In this document: piece by piece, positions 3 through 9,656 of the stretch
Numbering within the stretch: the first letter of the stretch is position 1
Layout of the letters: each line of letters opens with the position of its first letter
DNA from: a virus
Lineage: Duplodnaviria > Caudoviricetes
Direction: 5' to 3' (one strand)
DNA length: 64,000 bases
IMG/VR virus record: IMGVR_UViG_3300020577_010882
Span: 225 to 64,224 of that record
Position numbers and translations under genes: made by a program
The notes under the pieces: model-generated
The model's input: only the letters and a program-made list of their open reading frames with translations
Database searches by the model: none
Told to the model about the DNA's origin: nothing

Positions 3-3000
3 GCCCCGGGCACGACCATCGACAAGGCGTCCGGCGCCCCGCTCGCGAACCTCGACGCGATCTGGCAGACCGCCACCTCGCGCCCGGCCGTGGTCTCGAC
101 CATCGAGCAAGCGATTGCACAGAGCACCGGGATCTCGCGCGCCGAGAAGGTGGACGCGATCATGCTCGCCCGGGAGATGGAGGCCGACCCGAAGGCCATC
201 CTCGACTTCAAGCAGTTCGTCGCCGCTCGCCCGGCGCTCCTCCAGACCGTCGAGAAGGTAGCGGCGGAGAACGCCAAGCTCGGCGGCACCACGGCCGCCA
301 CGAGCGCGCCTGCCGCCACCCCCGCGGCAACCCCCGCCGACGCGTCCAGCGCCGCGCCTGCGCCCGCCACGCCCGCCGCAGCGGCGCTCGCGGACCTTCC
401 CCCTTCCCCGACCACCGACAAGGCCGCCGCGTTCGAGGCTGCCGAGCGTGCTGCACAGCAGCAGCGTGATCGCGAGATCGACGCCCTGCGCCGCGACGCC
501 GTCGAGACCCGGTACGAGCAGGAGCTTGCGCGCGCGGAAGCCGCAGGCTCCGGGCTTCAGCCCGGGCACCAGACCACGATGGAGGCGGCGCTCGGCGGAG
601 CGAAGATCCTCGGCAAGGACGCCGGCTCCCTGTCGGATGGCTCCCTGAAACTGCTTTCGGAGAAGGGTGCGCCGGAGGCTCGCGCCGCCGCGCGCGCGGA
701 GATCGCGCGCCGGGAGGAGCAGCGCCGAGCGGCCGACGCGATGGCGAACGAGGGCGGCCGTCCGCTCTACTCGCAGGCCGCGGCGTTCGAGCGCCTGCGC
801 GCGCAGCACAGCCGCGCAGACGGCGTGACCGGCGAGGAGTCGGTGCCGATGAACCTCGTGCCGCGCGAGCGCGCGCCGCGGTGGGCACAGCGCGCGGCGG
901 ATCTGCTTGCGGGCGCGTTCGGCAAGCAGGTGGTGTTCGTCGATGCCGACCCGAAGAAGTACGAGGGGTCGATGTTCATGGACGACCCGGGCACGGTCTA
1001 CGTGAACGTGAACGCGAATCGCTCGGTGCGTCGCGTGATCGGGCACGAACTGCTGCACACGCTGCGCCGCACGAACCCCGACGTGTACAAGCGCCTGCTG
1101 AAGGCGGTCTCGCGCGCGGTGGACCCGAAGGCTGCGGGCGAGCGCTACTCGAAGGTGTACGCCGACTACGTGTCGCGCTTCGGCACGGAGAAGGGCGTCG
1201 ATCTTCAGGTGGAGGAGATGGTCGCCGACATCTTCGGCGACCAGATGGACAATCCGCGCTTCTGGTACGACGTGTACCGCGCGATGGGCGAGGGGCGCGC
1301 GAAGTCGCTGATGCGCGCCATCGGCGTTGCGCTCGACGCGATGCGGATGAAGCTGCGCGTCGGCGCGAAGGGCGGCTACGACACGGCGGCGTTCGTGACG
1401 AACATCGAGGCCGTGCGCAAGGCGAGCGCGAGCGCGTACGCCGAATGGACGAAGGACGGCAGCCCCGCGCTCACCGCGGCCGAGGCTGCGGCGCTGGAGT
1501 CGCGCGCCGATGGTGCAGCGCCCGGGCCTTCGAGCGACGGGCTGAAGAAGTTCGCCGAGCGCCTGAAGGGCGAGGTGAAGGAGAAGACGGCCGGCATCCA
1601 CGCCGACGTGGCGATCTTCCGTGCGCAGGGTCGCTACAAGTACGACAAGGGCGACATCGTGATGGGCAGCAACGGTCGCTCGTGGGAGATCGTGACGCAG
1701 TACGCCACGCACGAGGGATCGTCTCGCGGCCCCATCGTGCCGGCCTACATCCTGAAGAGCACGGACGGCGAGGTGACGCGCACGTCCGTGATGGCCGACC
1801 CGTGGAAGAACTTCCGCGGCGAGCGGCGCCCGGGATTCCACGAAACGTCGTCGCTGCTCGTGCGGGCCGGGACGAAGGAGTCGCTCGACTCGAAGCCCGG
1901 ACGGCGTGACGTGACCGAGACGCCGGAGTTCAAGAAGTGGTTCGGCGACTCGAAGGTGGTGGACGCCGAGGGCAGGCCGCTCGTCGTGTATCACGGGACG
2001 CACTCGGACATCACCGCATTCAGCAAGCGGTTCGCCGGGTCCAACACTCCGAACTCTGGAATGTACGGCACGGCTCCGGGGTACTTCACGGCCAGCGCAT
2101 CTCACGCATCCGGGTATGCAGAGGGGCCAACGCATCGGCAACCTATGCACGAAGGCGCGAACGTGATGCCGGTGTACCTGTCGATCAAGAACCCGTTCGT
2201 CGTGGACTCCGGTGTTCTGGACGGGGCGGTGCGGAAGCTGGCGGGGCGCAATGGTGACGCGCTGGTGGCGCAACTAAAGGACGCTGGATACGACGGGGTT
2301 ATCGTCAGCAACACACGCGATCAGCAAGGCGATGCCGGCAAGTTCTTCGAGGTCATCCCGTTCTCTTCTGAGCAGATCAAGTCCGCCACCGGCAACCGCG
2401 GCACGTTCGACGCGGGCGACGACAACATCCTGCACTCGCGTCCGTCCTTCTCGAAGTTCGCGAAGGGTCTTCCGCGTGACGAGGAAGGCAACATCGTCGG
2501 ATCCGGCGGCAGGGACACGCGCAGCCTGTGGAACCTCGTGCAGCGCCTCGAAGCGGACGCACGCGAGGGCGAGCGCGGTCGCGCGTGGTATCGCGAATCG
2601 GCGAAGGAGATCCTCAAGGCGTTCAACGGAGACGTGCGCTCGGCCGAGCGCTTCGCGCAACTGATCGCCATCACATCCGCGCACACCGAGGTGCGGCCGA
2701 ACTTCACCGCTGCCGAGAAGGCGCTGATCCAGTTCGCGGCCGGCGAGCCGATCCACGTCGGCGTGAAGATGGTGGATCAGAAGGTGAACGACCTCCTGTA
2801 CTTCGGTGTCGAGTGGGAGGGCCGGAAGACCAACAACTTCTACAACACGATCATGGCGGAGATCACCGGGCAGAAGTCCGGCGAGACCGTCGTGGACATG
2901 CACCACGCGCGCGACATCGTGGGGCACACCTCGCCGTCGCCGGCCGAGTACGCGTTCATCGACTCCGTCTTCAAGCACGTCGCGAAGCGCATGCGCTGGC

Positions 3001-6000
3001 CGGCGCACGAGACGCAGGCGGCGATTTGGGTGGCGACGAAGGCGCGCTACCTGCTCGACAAGTACAAGGCGCGCGGCTGGCACTCCTCGAAGTCGGAGGC
3101 AGCAAAGCGCGAGATGGCGCTTGCCGAGGCGGGGATCCACTACGGCGACATCGCGCGTGCGCGCTGGTCGATGTTCGGGCCGGACGTGAAGTCGTTCGAG
3201 TCGAGCGAGGAGACGCAGGCGCGCGGCGTGAAGGTCACGGCCGAGGTGAAGCCCACCACGAAGCTCGACATCGGCAAGGCGGTGGCGCACCTGTCGATGA
3301 CGAAGGCGCAGGAGTACCAGAAGGACGCGCTGCGCAGCGTCTTCGGCGCGAAGGGCGTGGATGCGTTCTTCGAGGCAATGGGCCTCGACCGCACGCAGTA
3401 CCGCGTGGTCGAAGGCGCGGGCGGCTACGAAGGCATGACCGCGCCGAACGCGGTGGTCACGCTCAACGTGGACGCCGACACCGCCGAGCGCGTGGCGAAG
3501 GCGTGGATGTACATCTTCCGTCAGGACGCGGTGCCGTTCTTCCGCGCCGACGCGAAGCTGATCGACGACGCCAACGCAGCGCAGGGCGTGCTGATCGAGT
3601 TCAAGGACAAGCTCACGAACCCGAAGCTGCGCGAGGCGTTCGACGCGCTGCGCGCCGAGGTCGATCCGGGCATCGGCTTCACGCGCGTGTCCGAGCGCGA
3701 GATCGCGGTCATCAACTTCCGCGGCGACGACGGCAAGCCGTTCCTCATGGACGACGCTGCGTTCTACAACCGCTTGGACGATGCGCTTGACCGCGGCGTT
3801 CTCGCTGCTAAGATTGCATCGCGTTCGCGATTCGGCGCAGAGACGAGGTATCCCTACCATGACTGGCAAGAAGACAACTCGGGGCAAGGACTCCTTCCCG
3901 CCGCTGCGGGAGGATCACCCGCTGTACAACAGCGGCTTCGTCGTTGGGCAGACGTTTTCGGGCGCTTCGCCGAAGGACGTGCAGAAGATGCGCGACGCGC
4001 AGGCGGCGAACTCCGCTCCGCCCCGGCAGTTGACCGAGGACGAGATTCAGGCGGAACTCAAGAAGATGCGCGAGCAGGGGTTCGGGACGGTCGAGCAGTC
4101 GATGGCCGAGGAGATTCTGCGCGGGCTGGAGGGCAAGCCGAAGGGCAACGCCTAGCCGAGGGCTACGCCGGCAACGCGGCCGAAGGCACGCCGCGGATCT
4201 CCGTCCGGCCGCGCCATCCAGACGCAGTGACCGTGGTGGGCTACCACTACGGCGCAGACACCAACGAGCTTCACGGCGAGCGCTTCGGCACCGGGGCGCC
4301 TTCCGCCGAGTCTCGCGGCGTCGCGATCAAGAAGCGGATCTACTTCTACCCGCAGCGCACTCCCGGCGCGATGCCGGAGTCCGAGCGCGTGGTGACTGGC
4401 GAGCACGTGTCGCGAGCGGTCCTCACGAACCTGTACGACACGTGGGTTGATCCAGTGATCGCGAAGGCGACTAAGGATCTGCATGGTGGCGCATTCAACT
4501 TCAACACTTTCGAGCGCCTCGTGGTGGAGGCTGGATACGACGGGTACATCTCCCGCGGGCGCCCTCCAGATGGCGGCGTCGTCCTGCTCAACGTTGATCG
4601 CGTACCCGTCGAGCCGCTCGGCAAGCGCGCGGACGCGGCGAAGATCGTCGAGCGCATGGACTCTCGTCCGGCGGTTGTGGACGATGTCGCGGTCGCCGCG
4701 CGCGGCCACGCCGCAACCGAAGGTCAGCGCTCGGCCGGCAACTACGAGAAGGCGCACGTCAAGGTCGGCGGCCTCGACATCAGCATCGAGAACCGCGCCG
4801 GCACGAAGCGTCGCCCGGAGTGGCCCACGCTCAACGCGCACTACGGCTACATCAAGCGCACCGAGGATCGCACGGGCGAGCACATCGACGTGTTCGTGAA
4901 GCCGGGCACGCCGCTCGACTACAAGGGCGACGTGTTCGTCGTGGACACCAACACGCAGTCGAATCGCCCGGACGAGTACAAGGTGCTGGTCGGATGGGAC
5001 GATCTGCGCGCGGCGAAGAAGGACTTCCTCGCCAACTACACGAAGGACTGGAACGGCCTGCACGCGATCACGCGCTTTGACTCGATGGACGAGTTCAAGG
5101 CGTGGCTCGCCAACGGCGACACGAAGAGGCGCGTCGAGGGGCAGGCGCTCGACTCGCGCTCGACGGTGACGAGCACGCCGGAGTTCAAGCGCTGGTTCGG
5201 CGACTCGAAGGTGGTGGACGCCGAGGGCAGGCCGCTCGTCGTCTACCACGGCACCGGGGACGACTTCGGCGCGTTCAAGGTCTGGAGCCACTTCGGCTCG
5301 ACCGGCGCCGCGAACGAGCGCGCGATGCTGCCCTCGAACGAGCGGCGCAACGCGAACGTGATGCCGGTGTACCTGTCGATCAAGAACCCGCTGCGTATCA
5401 AGGACGTGGATGCGGACCCGAGCCGTTTCATCGCGGCGTGGGCCGGCGGCAAGATGCCGGAACTCGGGCCTCTGCCCAAGGAGTTGTCCGTGTCCGGCCG
5501 GCGCGAGCGGTACGCCGCGTGGAACAACTCGACCGACAGTCTCGTGCGCTTCTTGGAGGAGCGCGGATACGACGGTCTCGTGTACCAGAACGAGATCGAG
5601 GACGCAGGCCACGAGTCGTGGGTGGCGTTCCGTCCGTCGCAGGTGAAGTCCGTCTTCAACCGCGGCTCGTTCGATGCGGGAAGCGACAACGCGCTGGACT
5701 CGCGCGCGCGCGCGGTTGACGTGCCGATGAGCGTGGACGACCTGACCGACCTCGACTTCACGGATCCCAACAGCGATTTTGTGTCCAATCCTAGCCCATT
5801 CGAGGCGCAGTACCTTCCGTTCGACGACGAACTCGGCAACGAGGGTCCGTACACGATCACGTGGGCGCAGCAGCCGCGCAATGGGACGTGGATCTCCGAG
5901 ACCGCCGATGGTCGCTACCAGATCGTGCCGGACAACGGCTACTACATGGCCGAGGTGGATGGCCGCGAGGTAAGCTCGCACCGCACGCGCCGCGCCGCGA

Positions 6001-9000
6001 TCCAAGCGCTGAACCAGCGCCTCCAGAAGGACATCGCTGCCGGCACCGTGCGCGACCCGTTCGCCGCCAAGCTCGTCACGCTCCAGTACGAGCGAGATGC
6101 CGTCGAGCGCGTCGTCAGCGGGTGGGAGCGCATCGCCAAGATCCCGAGCATCTTCCGCAACCGCTTCTCGGTGAGCAAGAAGCTCGCCGATGTCATTCAG
6201 GCATTCGACAAGCAGAATCGTCTCGTCAGCGTGGACGTGGCGCAGGCCGATCAGGAGGGCATGCAGTACGAGATCAAGTTCAAGTCGATGCCCGGAGACG
6301 ACAAGACGATCAGCGCATTCCTGCACGTGTCGCACGTGCACAAGGAGGCGTACCTCGACATCTCCGCTGCCGATAAGGGTACGCAGGCGGGGTCGTTCAT
6401 CTACCCGGCGGTGTTTAATTGGGTGAAGAACAACGACTACAAGCTCGTGCCAGACCCGAACGGGCTGTCGAACATCAACACCTATCGCCGCACCGAGCAG
6501 ATGATCTCCGCCACGCTGAAGCTCGGCGGCACGGACTTCATGCGCCCGCACCCTGACCAGCGCCTCTACGGATGGGTGGACGACGTGAAGTCGAGGAACG
6601 ATCACGAGAAGAACGTCGCGATCATGCTCATCACCTCGATGCGCTCGGTGCAGGAGAAGATCCCGAAGGTGAAGGACTACGAGTTCGACTTCGACCGCAT
6701 GCGGTTCACGAAGAACGGATACGTCGTCCCGGCGAAGGAGATCCAAGCCTTCGCCACGGAGCGCGTGCGCTACAACTACGGCATGGGGCCTGCGACCATC
6801 GCGCGCGCCATCATCACGCAGTCGCTCATCGACAACCCGCAAGCGCTCAAGGAGATGAACGCGTCTAAGGCGCTGCCCTCGATCCTGACGAAGCCGGAGG
6901 AGGTCGCGCCGCTCGCGCTGTACTCGCAGCCTGCCGGCGCTGAAGGTGATCGCCCCGGCGCGGCGAAGCGCGCTGCGCTCGGCGCCGCGCGCGCGGCCGT
7001 GACCGCCGGTCGCCCGGTCGGCATGGCGCTCGACCTGACGAACCGCGTCATGGATCTGGCCGCGCAGATCCCCGGGCGCGTGGTGCTGCCGATCACCTCC
7101 CGGGCCTACGACCGCGTGACGGCGTGGAACCGAGACTTCTGGAAGGGCGGCGAGATCCGCCAGCAGATCGCGCACGGCATGGTCGCGGACTACGGCTTGC
7201 CCGAGCCGTACCTCGAACGCCGTGACGACCGCGAGATCGAGATCCAGAAGGTGCTGCGGCGCTCGAAGGAGGTCGTGGACCGCATCGCCTCGCTCGATCA
7301 CGCCGAGTCGCGCGTCGCGTACCTGTGGATGAACGAGAAGCCGGACACCGCCGAGGAGCAGCGGCTCCTCGCGATGCTGCCGGCGGAGTCGCGCGCGACG
7401 CTGGCCGAGATGAAGCAGATGATCGACGACCTCGGGCAGGAAGCGGTGCGCCTCGGCCTCCTCTCGCAGGAGTCCTACGAGCGCAACCACATGGCGTACC
7501 TGCATCGCTCGTACAAGAAGTACGAGGTCGAGAACCCGCAGGCGGTGGCGTCCTCCGCGCGCGCGAAGGCGCTGCGCGCCGAGACCTACCGCGGTCGTGG
7601 CTTGCGCGACGACGTGTCGCTGGAGCGCGTGCCCGGTGCGCAGAGGGGCGACCACTACGTGCGGCTGGAGAAGCGAAAGGGCGGCACCGCGGAGAAGCTC
7701 GGCATGCTGGAGCGTGTCGTCTACATCGCCGCCGGGCATCCGATCCCGCCCGCGTACGCCGGCTGGAGGAACGACGGCGTGTGGGAGGCGCGCTTCACCG
7801 ACCGCGAGGGCAGCGTCGGCATGTGGCGCGACCTCACGCCGGATGAGCGCCAGCGCCTCGGCGAGATCGAGGAGGTGCGCTACGCATTCGCGCGCACGAT
7901 GATCGCGCAGATTCAGGACATCGAGACGGCGAAGTTCCTCGCGTGGGTCGGGGCCAACTACTCCGTCGCCGACGAGGCGGCAGTGGCGGAGAAGGGCGGC
8001 GTCGTCGCCGACACGTCCGACAGCATGGTCACGCTGAAGACCTACGCCGACAACGAGTGGGTGCAGGTGCCGGGCACCGTGGCGCAGGGCACGCGCCTCT
8101 ACAAGTACGGCGCGATCCAGAGCCGCTACATCCCGGGGCACATCTGGAACGACATCCGCGCGACGATCAACTCGCGCTCGTCGTCGAACGTGTGGCGTCT
8201 CTACGACGAGTTGCTGAAGGGCTGGAAGGTCGCGAAGACCGCGCTCTCGCCTGCCGTGCACACGAACAACGTGATGTCGAACTTCATCCTCGCGGATCTG
8301 GCCGAGGTGTCGCACAAGAACCTCGCGCAAGCGCTGCGCACGATGATCGACGCAGAAGCCGGAAACGAGACCGCGCGCGCCGTACTCACGCGCTATCTAG
8401 ACTCCGGCGCCGAACTCGGTACGCCAGCGCTGCACGAGCTTCGTCGCGAGGTGATCGAGCCGATCCTCGCCAAGCTGCAAGGCGAGGAGAGCGAGACGCT
8501 CGCGAGCCTGTCCCTGATCCAAGCGCTCGCCCTTGCCGCGCGCGGCAACGTGCGGCAGGCGCTCGCCGGGGCCTCGAACTGGAAGATGTCGAAGGCGGCC
8601 AAGTGGCCCTTCGAGGTGATGATGTCGGCGTACGGGCTGGAGGATTCGGTCTTCCGCTTCGCCAAGTGGCTGAAGGAAACCGATGGCGGCAAGGACGACC
8701 GCACCGCCGCGAAGGAGGCGCGCGCCGCGTTCCTCGACTACCGCATCAACGCGCCGTGGATCCAAGCGCTGCGCCGCGGACCGTTCCCGTTCCTCGCGTT
8801 CACCTACCGCGTGGTGCCCATCCTCGCGGACGCGGCGGCCAACAAGCCGTGGAAGCTGATGAAGTACGCCGCCGCCGGCTACGCCGTGAACGCGCTCGCG
8901 TACGCGATGCTCGGCCTCGGCGGAAGCGACGAGGACAAGGAGCGCGCACTGCTGCCCGACGAGAAGCAGGGCGTCACCATCCTCGGCACGCCGCGCCTCG

Positions 9001-9656
9001 TACGCATGCCGTGGAACGACGAGCACGGCTCCCCCGTCTTCCTCGACATCCGCCGCTGGATCCCGGGCGGAGACCTGATCGACGTGAACGGATCGCACTC
9101 GGCGATCCCGCTGCCGCAGTGGCTCTCGCTCGGCGGCTTCTTCGGCCTCGGCATGGAGATGATGTCGAACAAGAACTCCTTCACCGGCAAGGAAATCTGG
9201 AAGGAGTCCGACACCATCGCCGAGCGTACGTCGAAGGTGTTCGATCACCTGTTCCGCTTTATGGCGCCGAACGTGCCGCTCCCGAACCCGCTCGGGTACG
9301 CTCTCGACGCAGCGGTGGTGGAGAACGGCATGCTCCAGACCTACTCGTGGCGCGCGATCCAAGCCGCGGACACGGGCGTCACCGACGACTTCGGCCGCGA
9401 GAAGAGCCTGCCGCAGTCGGTGGCGTCGGCGGTGGGCGTGAAGCTCTCGGCCTACCCGGAAGATCAGCTTCGCCGCAACCTCATCCAGAAGCGCGACGCG
9501 GAACTGCGCGACAACTCCGAGACCACCAGCCGCTACAAGCGCGAGGCGCGACGCGGCGGCCTCACGATGGAGGAACTGGAGGCACGGCTCAAGAAGCAGA
9601 ACGACAAGGCGCAGGAGATCCGCGAGCGCTACGGCAAGCGGATCAGCCAGCCCTGA
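3..9656 (+). CDS. Giant polyvalent virion/ejection protein, 5'-partial: zincin peptidase (HELLH..EE, ~880-1400), ART-PolyVal-like x2 (~1910-2440, ~5160-5700), HhH-GPD-like domain (~2570-3050), third ART-like domain (~4225-4600), inorganic pyrophosphatase (~4720-5140), GNAT-like domain (~6250-6600), helical C-terminal region
   Basis: Frame is open from nt 3 to TGA at 9656 (>3200 codons). Motifs: VIGHELLH; WFGDSKVVDAEGRPLVVYHGT twice; GNYEKAHV...HYGYIKRT...EHIDVFV...DEYKVLVG. Confidence 0.9.
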   Translation, partial: APGTTIDKASGAPLANLDAIWQTATSRPAVVSTIEQAIAQSTGISRAEKVDAIMLAREMEADPKAILDFKQFVAARPALLQTVEKVAAENAKLGGTTAATSAPAATPAATPADASSAAPAPATPAAAALADLPPSPTTDKAAAFEAAERAAQQQRDREIDALRRDAVETRYEQELARAEAAGSGLQPGHQTTMEAALGGAKILGKDAGSLSDGSLKLLSEKGAPEARAAARAEIARREEQRRAADAMANEGGRPLYSQAAAFERLRAQHSRADGVTGEESVPMNLVPRERAPRWAQRAADLLAGAFGKQVVFVDADPKKYEGSMFMDDPGTVYVNVNANRSVRRVIGHELLHTLRRTNPDVYKRLLKAVSRAVDPKAAGERYSKVYADYVSRFGTEKGVDLQVEEMVADIFGDQMDNPRFWYDVYRAMGEGRAKSLMRAIGVALDAMRMKLRVGAKGGYDTAAFVTNIEAVRKASASAYAEWTKDGSPALTAAEAAALESRADGAAPGPSSDGLKKFAERLKGEVKEKTAGIHADVAIFRAQGRYKYDKGDIVMGSNGRSWEIVTQYATHEGSSRGPIVPAYILKSTDGEVTRTSVMADPWKNFRGERRPGFHETSSLLVRAGTKESLDSKPGRRDVTETPEFKKWFGDSKVVDAEGRPLVVYHGTHSDITAFSKRFAGSNTPNSGMYGTAPGYFTASASHASGYAEGPTHRQPMHEGANVMPVYLSIKNPFVVDSGVLDGAVRKLAGRNGDALVAQLKDAGYDGVIVSNTRDQQGDAGKFFEVIPFSSEQIKSATGNRGTFDAGDDNILHSRPSFSKFAKGLPRDEEGNIVGSGGRDTRSLWNLVQRLEADAREGERGRAWYRESAKEILKAFNGDVRSAERFAQLIAITSAHTEVRPNFTAAEKALIQFAAGEPIHVGVKMVDQKVNDLLYFGVEWEGRKTNNFYNTIMAEITGQKSGETVVDMHHARDIVGHTSPSPAEYAFIDSVFKHVAKRMRWPAHETQAAIWVATKARYLLDKYKARGWHSSKSEAAKREMALAEAGIHYGDIARARWSMFGPDVKSFESSEETQARGVKVTAEVKPTTKLDIGKAVAHLSMTKAQEYQKDALRSVFGAKGVDAFFEAMGLDRTQYRVVEGAGGYEGMTAPNAVVTLNVDADTAERVAKAWMYIFRQDAVPFFRADAKLIDDANAAQGVLIEFKDKLTNPKLREAFDALRAEVDPGIGFTRVSEREIAVINFRGDDGKPFLMDDAAFYNRLDDALDRGVLAAKIASRSRFGAETRYPYHDWQEDNSGQGLLPAAAGGSPAVQQRLRRWADVFGRFAEGRAEDARRAGGELRSAPAVDRGRDSGGTQEDARAGVRDGRAVDGRGDSARAGGQAEGQRLAEGYAGNAAEGTPRISVRPRHPDAVTVVGYHYGADTNELHGERFGTGAPSAESRGVAIKKRIYFYPQRTPGAMPESERVVTGEHVSRAVLTNLYDTWVDPVIAKATKDLHGGAFNFNTFERLVVEAGYDGYISRGRPPDGGVVLLNVDRVPVEPLGKRADAAKIVERMDSRPAVVDDVAVAARGHAATEGQRSAGNYEKAHVKVGGLDISIENRAGTKRRPEWPTLNAHYGYIKRTEDRTGEHIDVFVKPGTPLDYKGDVFVVDTNTQSNRPDEYKVLVGWDDLRAAKKDFLANYTKDWNGLHAITRFDSMDEFKAWLANGDTKRRVEGQALDSRSTVTSTPEFKRWFGDSKVVDAEGRPLVVYHGTGDDFGAFKVWSHFGSTGAANERAMLPSNERRNANVMPVYLSIKNPLRIKDVDADPSRFIAAWAGGKMPELGPLPKELSVSGRRERYAAWNNSTDSLVRFLEERGYDGLVYQNEIEDAGHESWVAFRPSQVKSVFNRGSFDAGSDNALDSRARAVDVPMSVDDLTDLDFTDPNSDFVSNPSPFEAQYLPFDDELGNEGPYTITWAQQPRNGTWISETADGRYQIVPDNGYYMAEVDGREVSSHRTRRAAIQALNQRLQKDIAAGTVRDPFAAKLVTLQYERDAVERVVSGWERIAKIPSIFRNRFSVSKKLADVIQAFDKQNRLVSVDVAQADQEGMQYEIKFKSMPGDDKTISAFLHVSHVHKEAYLDISAADKGTQAGSFIYPAVFNWVKNNDYKLVPDPNGLSNINTYRRTEQMISATLKLGGTDFMRPHPDQRLYGWVDDVKSRNDHEKNVAIMLITSMRSVQEKIPKVKDYEFDFDRMRFTKNGYVVPAKEIQAFATERVRYNYGMGPATIARAIITQSLIDNPQALKEMNASKALPSILTKPEEVAPLALYSQPAGAEGDRPGAAKRAALGAARAAVTAGRPVGMALDLTNRVMDLAAQIPGRVVLPITSRAYDRVTAWNRDFWKGGEIRQQIAHGMVADYGLPEPYLERRDDREIEIQKVLRRSKEVVDRIASLDHAESRVAYLWMNEKPDTAEEQRLLAMLPAESRATLAEMKQMIDDLGQEAVRLGLLSQESYERNHMAYLHRSYKKYEVENPQAVASSARAKALRAETYRGRGLRDDVSLERVPGAQRGDHYVRLEKRKGGTAEKLGMLERVVYIAAGHPIPPAYAGWRNDGVWEARFTDREGSVGMWRDLTPDERQRLGEIEEVRYAFARTMIAQIQDIETAKFLAWVGANYSVADEAAVAEKGGVVADTSDSMVTLKTYADNEWVQVPGTVAQGTRLYKYGAIQSRYIPGHIWNDIRATINSRSSSNVWRLYDELLKGWKVAKTALSPAVHTNNVMSNFILADLAEVSHKNLAQALRTMIDAEAGNETARAVLTRYLDSGAELGTPALHELRREVIEPILAKLQGEESETLASLSLIQALALAARGNVRQALAGASNWKMSKAAKWPFEVMMSAYGLEDSVFRFAKWLKETDGGKDDRTAAKEARAAFLDYRINAPWIQALRRGPFPFLAFTYRVVPILADAAANKPWKLMKYAAAGYAVNALAYAMLGLGGSDEDKERALLPDEKQGVTILGTPRLVRMPWNDEHGSPVFLDIRRWIPGGDLIDVNGSHSAIPLPQWLSLGGFFGLGMEMMSNKNSFTGKEIWKESDTIAERTSKVFDHLFRFMAPNVPLPNPLGYALDAAVVENGMLQTYSWRAIQAADTGVTDDFGREKSLPQSVASAVGVKLSAYPEDQLRRNLIQKRDAELRDNSETTSRYKREARRGGLTMEELEARLKKQNDKAQEIRERYGKRISQP
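1920..2195 (+). repeat. ART cassette 1 flanks, identical to ART cassette 2 flanks
   Basis: 1938-1987 = 5193-5242 (50 nt); 1920-1934 = 5175-5189 (15 nt); 2156-2195 = 5351-5390 (40 nt). Confidence 0.95.
3859..4155 (+). CDS. 98-aa gene overprinted in the +1 frame inside the giant gene
   Basis: GAGGT at 3845-3849 lies 9 nt before ATG 3859. Codons are phage-typical (aag/gac/gag/ttc/ccg), while the host frame becomes A-ending and R/G/A/D-rich. Confidence 0.75.
   Translation: MTGKKTTRGKDSFPPLREDHPLYNSGFVVGQTFSGASPKDVQKMRDAQAANSAPPRQLTEDEIQAELKKMREQGFGTVEQSMAEEILRGLEGKPKGNA
5175..5390 (+). repeat. ART cassette 2 flanks, identical to ART cassette 1 flanks
   Basis: Same blocks as 1920-2195; the enclosed cores are 108 nt vs 168 nt and dissimilar. 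Confidence 0.95.

Follow-up and report, generated by a model that had tools for sequence, protein, structure and literature searches.

The DNA analyzed here is a stretch of 64,000 nucleotides (the window, numbered from its first letter) that covers positions 225 to 64,224 of IMG/VR virus record IMGVR_UViG_3300020577_010882 (Duplodnaviria; Caudoviricetes). It is nearly the whole of this 64,224-bp record, which has direct terminal repeats and a GC content of 66.6% and comes from an uncultured phage. A giant gene lies at its start. Nested within that gene, in the +1 frame, is a 98-codon open reading frame (ORF), here called N. We consider N very probably a real gene maintained by selection, and its product may be a partner of the giant protein whose coding sequence surrounds it.

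The giant frame in the window represents the 3' 3,217 codons of a gene for a 3,292-amino-acid protein (P0004), and 21 homologues of the giant protein were found. Pfam models that scored above cut-off in P0004 were ART-PolyVal (in two stretches), DUF7178, InPase, and LPD37. Because of this domain set, the giant gene is, by its sequence, a polyvalent-protein gene in the sense of Iyer et al. 2017 (PMC5512222), where phage polyvalent proteins are predicted to be carried in the capsid and to enter the cell together with the DNA. Two further regions of the giant protein, called U and D, flank the nested frame (Table 1).

Table 1. Features of the overlap and of the surrounding giant gene, in window positions. 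GC3, GC content at third codon positions; pLDDT, predicted local distance difference test.
Feature	Position	Strand	Remarks
Giant polyvalent-protein gene	3..9656	+	Open frame with Pfam matches; 5' end beyond the window
Domain U core, giant frame	3294..3848	+	Tandem ferredoxin-like (beta-alpha-beta-beta-alpha-beta), AlphaFold2 pLDDT 80-92; conserved in giant homologues
Shine-Dalgarno-like GAGG(T)	3845..3849	+	10 nt before the N ATG; made by giant codons ACG AGG
Invariant giant-frame motif YPYHDW	3849..3866	+	His-Asp codons CAT GAC create ATG 3859-3861
Nested gene N	3859..4155	+	98 amino acids, +1 frame of the giant ORF; ATG 3859, TAG 4153-4155
N-module, N residues 12-41 (FPPLREDHPLYNSGFVVGQTFSGASPKD), dual-coding core	3892..3981	+	Same bases read as giant-frame tail GLLPAAAGGSPAVQQRLRRWADVFGRFAEG
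U tail helix in giant frame (GGSPAVQQRLRRWADVFGRFAEGRAEDARR)	3909..4005	+	Kept in giant homologues; helix 209-236 of AlphaFold2 model A4, pLDDT about 80
Disordered giant-frame U-D linker	4011..4160	+	pLDDT 25-43, model residues 240-289; giant GC3 0.35-0.47; overprinted on the second half of N
C-module, N residues 57-98 (LTEDEIQAELKKMREQGFGTVEQSMAEEILRGLEGKPKGNA), helical hairpin	4027..4152	+	Predicted helices 60-72 and 77-89
Domain D, giant frame (GYHYG...RIYFYP...GYDGY)	4185..4682	+	Conserved in giant homologues

The nested frame and its start site

The sequence-only reading of this DNA had proposed a hidden gene here, opened by GAGGT and ATG 3859 and written in the phage's usual codons. The ribosome-binding motif, start, length, and stop are all present in the sequence. 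The codon claim also holds: over 3859-4155 the GC contents at the three codon positions (GC1/2/3) in the N frame are 0.63/0.43/0.89, the last equal to the giant-gene average (0.66/0.46/0.89 overall), while giant-frame GC3 over the same bases is 0.43. We scored codon-usage log-likelihood in the three forward frames, in 120-nt windows, along the entire giant gene. Positions 3813-4230 were the only stretch of the 9.65-kb gene where another frame, the +1 frame, outscored the giant frame. Hence, the phase flip that a per-frame codon plot had been expected to reveal is real and local.

How much does an open frame count for in such a gene? The giant gene contains six +1-frame stop-to-stop stretches of 128-186 codons, and +1 ORFs of 100-186 codons occur elsewhere too. 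Given the N protein and the codon usage of the phage, an uninterrupted giant frame across N is expected by chance with P=0.22. The argument for selection on N therefore comes from conservation and not from open frames. A further +1-frame ORF of 138 amino acids, at window positions 4483-4899 of the giant gene, did not outscore the giant frame in the codon-usage scan and is therefore probably a chance open frame.

Stops in the +1 frame of homologues and loss of the Shine-Dalgarno (SD) sequence had been named in advance as evidence against a gene. We looked for both in a first set of eight DNA loci: the window, six giant homologues (L002-L007), and a fragment (L008). From the YPYHDW spot the +1 frame was open for 70-186 codons in seven of the eight. 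The eighth, L005, has two stops, followed by its own ATG and a 70-codon ORF. The five loci that, like the window, encode His-Asp as CAT GAC (the window, L004, L006, L007, and L008) all carry a 4-nt SD core (GAGG, AGGA, or GGAG) exactly 10 nt upstream of the resulting ATG. At the same spacing, GGAG was found in lower-GC IMG/VR loci (L015-L017, L019-L022, L024, L025, and L027). In the first set, the three loci that spell His-Asp as CAC GAC have neither the ATG nor the SD core and use other starts; the SD core is likewise absent from L029, another CAC GAC locus. L005 is one of the three, and its two +1-frame stops are followed immediately by AAGGA-N8-ATG and the N motif. Since these stops fall directly before a separate SD and ATG, they argue for initiation rather than frameshifting. 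RNA folding of the N start region revealed no unusual structure. The dependence of the start on a single His codon also offers an experimental handle: changing CAT to CAC would be silent in the giant protein and would remove the N start codon.

Conservation in two frames

Giant-frame conservation does not stop where N begins. In the alignment, the giant reading from 3849 to about 4005 is conserved among giant homologues. P0005 is 59% identical over ...GAETxYPYHDW...G..LL.....GRPDLQxRLxRWAxxFxRFAEGRA, and the closer homologues are 45-59% identical over the overlap. The bases behind the U tail consensus, YPYHDW...GRPDLQxRLxRWADxFxRFAE, also give the N motif PPLPxDxP[IL][YF]xxG[FW]xxGQTF, and the form (F)PPLPxD[DH]P[IL][YF]xxG[FW][IV]VGQTFSGASP was common to all eight loci. 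The sequence-only reading had described the giant frame across N as an A-ending, linker-like sequence. That description is right for the low GC3 and for the linker proper; the first 45 or so codons are instead the conserved tail of U.

The codons themselves point to a second constraint. The giant-frame residues G-R-P-D-L-Q are spelled GGA CGA CCC GAT CTA CAA in GC-rich genomes, where these are rare codons in the giant frame. Read in the +1 frame, the same letters are GAC GAC CCG ATC TAC AA (DDPIY). Giant-frame synonymous sites are thus fixed at rare A/T-ending codons that are the preferred codons of the +1 frame, and the collapse of giant-frame GC3 arises because the rare codons spell DDPIY there. 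Where two sequences share an amino acid, the same codon was used with a frequency of 0.63 in the overlap core (0.42 expected), compared with 0.50 in U (0.46 expected).

As a null, we left the giant proteins unchanged and replaced their codons 1000 times by synonymous ones drawn according to the usage of each gene. Mean pairwise +1-frame identity was 0.376, against 0.266 +/- 0.015 under the null (z=7.2, 0/1000). The excess was localized: columns +25 to +47 after YPYHDW gave z=7.7, and four control segments in U gave z of 0.5-1.5. Synonymous conservation also raised +2-frame identity (z=5.4). Further U loci came from IMG/VR and GTDB, queried with the U alignment. Each of the 15 distinct U-domain sequences carries a +1 ORF with the motif, down to about 30% U identity and 47% GC. 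A hidden Markov model (HMM) of the N-module detected 13 of the 15 at E<0.01; the motif in L007 and L015 was seen only as DPIY.EG. These data support purifying selection on both frames in the first half of N. Of the earlier proposal that both frames look selected, the part that conservation beyond the null bears out is kept, and the openness of the giant frame is set aside as evidence.

Contigs from three freshwater-type metagenome runs (X3, X4, and X5), which are relatives of the window sequence and not identical to it, share an extra T after 3874 and lack one base at 3881. The two indels are compensating, lie 7 nt apart, and restore both frames; they fall in the least conserved part of both proteins.

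Relatives of N, U, and D

With N as the query, an exhaustive HMMER search of 1.84 billion representative proteins returned 20 matches at E<=0.001, and a profile search of a 5.8-billion-cluster collection returned 18 small N-like proteins and one longer one. These roughly 20 relatives are all metagenomic; none is named beyond "hypothetical" and none has a Pfam domain. N itself matched no Pfam or PHROG model, gave only E>1 in a PDB profile search, and had no usable match in the Atlas. Pattern searches found no N relatives in IMG/VR or GTDB genomes, and a metagenome scan found one locus (L010). Neither U, N, nor similar DNA was found in GenBank phages.

Proteins of the N family are built from two modules, the N-module and a C-module with the consensus TEEEIQAELxRMRxxGYGTxExSFAEEAxRGLEGKPxGNA. 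The N-module is repeated twice in P0043 and in P0044, and C-modules end several longer proteins (P0026, P0031, and P0035). Nesting is seen again in L008. This 1.9-kb piece of a related giant gene shares the nested layout, and there N was called by the gene caller. Other copies are free-standing. L009 and the near-identical L010 (a 63-kb contig) encode an N homologue of 118-119 amino acids with its own GC3 signal of about 0.78-0.80, and stops close the other frame just outside it. In L011 the homologue has 103 amino acids. Its ATG shares bases with the stop codon that ends an unrelated ORF upstream (ATGA), and a GGAG SD stands ahead of it. The alternative frame of this gene reads ETAYPC*DW...GGRPDLQARLDRWADVLGCFAEA, a giant-frame relic with an in-frame stop. 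The free-standing copies end at the same ...GNA* as nested N.

Nucleotide differences in the C-module follow the N frame. In every comparison that included a free-standing copy, differences at N-frame positions ran pos2<pos1<pos3; the values for positions 1/2/3 were 0.24/0.18/0.48 for window-L009 and 0.43/0.21/0.62 for L009-L011. The nested pair window-L008 gave 0.40/0.21/0.30, highest at position 1 and lowest at N position 2, which is giant position 3. This is the opposite of what selection on the giant frame alone would leave. Purifying selection on the N frame of the free-standing homologues is thus supported by their substitution pattern. Over the linker half, the codon-usage criterion of PMC8227390 makes the N frame look ancestral. 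The YPYHDW relic within L011 instead suggests that at least this copy escaped from the nested state.

Several observations concern the wider distribution of the modules. The C-module (40 residues, ...GLEGKPxGNA) also terminates P0031, P0034, and P0035, which are otherwise unrelated; P0031 (664 amino acids, faintly PcfJ-like) has a degenerate copy in addition to an intact one. In its behaviour, the C-module resembles a portable C-terminal unit of proteins from mobile elements. P0044 (L012 3001-4266) is an unrelated 421-amino-acid protein whose two N-module copies read PPLPPDDPFFTRGFVIGQTVAG. Its gene directly follows an S-adenosylmethionine synthetase gene, a HigB-like toxin/helix-turn-helix pair lies a few genes away, and the context resembles a mobile element or defence island. 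Pfam searches on the neighbours of free-standing N genes were uninformative. In P0009, a topoisomerase-carrying polyvalent protein, the linker before D (residues about 1757-1819) closely resembles the alternative-frame reading of the L009 N gene. P0009 probably also hides a nested C-module ORF, though without domain U.

We then asked what U and D might be. AlphaFold placed the U fold first, followed by helix 209-236, a disordered linker (240-289), and D. U matched no Pfam or PDB sequence profile and nothing in Foldseek at E<=0.001, and its structural matches by VIA-align were generic ferredoxin-like folds (Z<=7.1). A plasmid search found a weak U homologue (34% identity, E 8e-4; L030 2836-3582) on a plasmid of Azospirillum sp. 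TSH58. It is a secreted hypothetical protein of 248 amino acids, with neither a YPYHDW tail nor a nested ORF.

D was found in at least 73 other IMG/VR loci (L031-L103) with an alignment query; a single-sequence pattern query gave none. It likewise matched no Pfam or PDB sequence profile and nothing in Foldseek at E<=0.001. Two comparisons lean toward ADP-ribosyltransferases (ART): hhalign aligns D weakly with the latter half of ART-PolyVal (E 0.0016, prob 16%), and the structure of D weakly resembles that of MbcT, an ART-like toxin, within the noise range of the search (Z 5.6, rmsd 5.0, 126 aligned residues). D is possibly a divergent ART-like domain, and it may be an undescribed family of polyvalent-protein domains. 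The idea that the C-module travels with D was dropped, as the module is absent upstream of D in 73 of the 73 other loci; any link between N and D is therefore lineage-specific at best. Judged by these distributions, the association of the N-module with U appears universal and the relation of N to D appears specific to this lineage.

A predicted N-U-D complex and its interpretation

Does N bind the domains it is encoded between? We predicted a three-chain complex of U (window 3294-3992, 8-row alignment), D (4185-4682, 4 rows), and N (10 rows). The mark was an interface score of >=0.32 that also lay >=0.20 above every control; in calibration, 58 of 80 solved complexes and 2 of 110 mismatched pairs passed it, counts that hold roughly here. 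In each of three runs the complex had an ipSAE (interaction prediction score from aligned errors) of 0.88. Replacing N brought the score to 0.00 in both controls, and replacing U in a further control left it at 0.67. In the latter, 68 confident contacts remained and N, by elimination, was still placed on D. The complex runs shared at least 78% of their contacts, with partner pLDDT of at least 75. The sequence-only reading had suggested an immunity, antidote, or chaperone partner beside toxin-like domains; of this, the binding is what the prediction backs, short of demonstrating it, at 0.88 against 0.67 for the best control.

In the predicted complex, N residues 12-41 run along U and residues 66-92 pack on D. 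The N segment GFVV (26-29) lies against U 82-85, and FPPL lies against U 178-180. Because U 82-85 is a strand in a separate AlphaFold2 model, we read the GFVV contact as strand addition. The predicted N-U interface includes the conserved U residues T130, E183, Y186, and D190, and the predicted N-D interface includes the invariant D-domain residues E42, Y53, E110, and Y121.

Together, these results lead us to favor, with some reserve, a combined view: the nested gene is real, and its product is a partner of the giant protein. N would be translated from its own SD and from an ATG formed by the His-Asp codons of the invariant YPYHDW. Its first half would be true dual coding, with the N motif and the U tail helix drawn from the same bases; its second half, the hairpin, would lie over the disordered giant linker, where N alone would set codon choice. 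The small, mostly disordered product would then bind the giant protein beside its own coding site as a cis-encoded partner, the N-module along U by strand addition and the C-terminal hairpin packed on D. The predicted models leave the chances that N binds U about even. Such a partner might aid the folding, assembly, or packaging of this part of the 3,292-amino-acid protein, or it might mask conserved surfaces of U and D until ejection into a new host. Taken singly, the chaperone role and the mask role are each rather doubtful.

A bolder proposal, which we hold to be unlikely as a whole, is that U-bearing polyvalent proteins in general carry a built-in partner. N would strap or mask U (and here D too) in the producing cell and the virion and would be lost as the protein threads into the next host, so that the effector is activated; the gene would have escaped several times. 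If so, the nucleotides of the U tail helix would also encode a U-binding peptide, and YPYHDW would both contact N and supply its start codon.

A number of results weigh against a gene whose product partners with the giant protein. Open frames by themselves were not significant. N alone was predicted to be mostly disordered apart from a C-terminal helical hairpin, at low confidence (pLDDT 61). The complex passed narrowly (+0.21 versus the required 0.20), the alignments were shallow, and a three-chain job is unlike the calibration. U is only generically ferredoxin-like and D only weakly ART-like, and these comparisons identify neither as a toxin or an enzyme. An HMM of the C-module found no match upstream of D in the 73 other D loci. 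Finally, there are free-standing N genes with neither U nor D nearby, in the 6.3 kb (L009), 8.3 kb (L010), and 638 bp (L011) examined.

The last point bears on the main rival to a cis-encoded partner. N might be real and separately translated, with its target a host or another phage component (for example, as a takeover or anti-defence peptide) and its nesting a matter of compression or co-expression. The chief argument is the free-standing contexts, which fit a target other than the giant protein: L009/L010, L011, and the module fusions P0044 and P0031 have no polyvalent gene nearby. The N-module, present twice in P0043 and P0044, also looks like a short linear motif, and the C-module is missing from the other D loci. 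These arguments must be set against the passing complex prediction and the presence of the N-module with U in all 15 distinct loci, although the overlap itself forces that co-occurrence. Moreover, the free-standing contig stretches span just 0.6-8 kb, so that a U-type protein elsewhere in those genomes is possible. On balance, a target outside the giant protein seems to us fairly improbable.

Might the +1 ORF instead be untranslated and its conservation only a by-product, with selection acting on the giant protein or on some element of RNA or DNA in this stretch? Open +1 frames are frequent, and not significant, in a 67% GC giant gene, YPYHDW forces T-M/T-T-G in the +1 frame, and identity in the +2 frame is raised too. 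However, +1 identity exceeds a null in which the giant proteins are fixed, codon usage fits the +1 and not the giant frame, and no notable RNA structure marks the start. Free-standing copies also keep the N frame, with a coding-type substitution pattern, while the giant-like frame decays. We regard a by-product as quite unlikely. The N sequence might also be no separate product but the end of a truncated U-N fusion, made by +1 ribosomal frameshifting from the giant frame and stopping at TAG 4155. That the +1 frame is open from 3595, ahead of the ATG, and that C-modules terminate P0026, P0031, and P0035 would fit such a fusion. It is made very unlikely by the SD core that covaries with the ATG, by the two stops right before the ATG of L005, and by free-standing copies that begin at their own ATG; no obvious slippery site was seen by eye, and no formal search was made. 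An abrupt phase flip and return resembles two indels, and close relatives do have the +1/-1 pair described above, so an assembly error or a recent compensating frameshift pair displacing an in-frame giant segment was also considered. The same two-frame layout recurs in independent assemblies from many samples, the giant reading of the overlap is conserved in the closer homologues, and N has its own stop, at an end shared with the free-standing copies. Independent assemblies and giant-frame conservation refute such an artefact for practical purposes, and its probability is negligible.

The preferred reading, a nested gene with a partner of the giant protein as its product, matters in several respects. 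Gene callers miss N, which was called only on short fragments that cut the giant ORF, such as L008. As an example of dual coding kept over long times in a double-stranded DNA phage it would be unusually clean, with natural controls in the free-standing copies whose other frame decayed. If the predicted binding is true, giant injected effectors can encode their own chaperone or mask within their coding sequence, which would bear on how such effectors are kept folded, harmless, or packageable.

Comparison with known systems

MbcT-MbcA (PDB 6fkg) is one point of reference, as D weakly matches MbcT and the predicted N hairpin lies on conserved D residues in the way an antitoxin covers a toxin. The likeness has limits: N is unlike MbcA, the D-MbcT match is within noise, and the C-module is absent from most D loci.

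Phage P1 offers a model for the assembly or packaging role. Packaging of its DarB protein needs the small helper proteins Hdf, DarA, and DdrA, and DarB, as may hold for the giant protein here, is a giant injected effector with small partners. The P1 helpers, in contrast, are separate, non-overlapping genes, and no homology to N was found. DarA and DarB are mentioned in the survey of polyvalent proteins (PMC5512222), the class to which the giant gene belongs with its ART-PolyVal, InPase, and LPD37 domains; U, D, and N differ in that they match no Pfam model. A term search of that paper found no "overlapping" and no passage on nested or cis-encoded partner genes.

The polymerase spacer of hepatitis B virus is overprinted on the preS/S gene, and a modular-overlap model, with a pre-existing S gene, has been described for it (PMC8227390). 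There, too, a smaller gene in another frame lies under part of a large multidomain protein, and that part is a tolerant spacer, which fits the C-module/linker half of N. The present case concerns a bacterial double-stranded DNA phage and not a reverse-transcribing animal virus, and the other half of N is conserved in both frames.

A formal parallel is the lysis spanin of phage lambda, Rz/Rz1. Rz1 is wholly embedded in the +1 frame of Rz, and the two products act together. N is likewise a small, fully nested phage gene on the same strand and in the +1 frame, and the proposal is that its product binds that of the surrounding gene. Unlike the lipoprotein Rz1, which has a signal sequence and a lipobox, N has no cysteine and no hydrophobic N terminus; its container is a polyvalent effector of 3,292 amino acids, and there is no sequence relation. 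Hence, nested +1 phage genes as such are already known from Rz/Rz1, and what is found here is an unannotated protein family inside a polyvalent gene.

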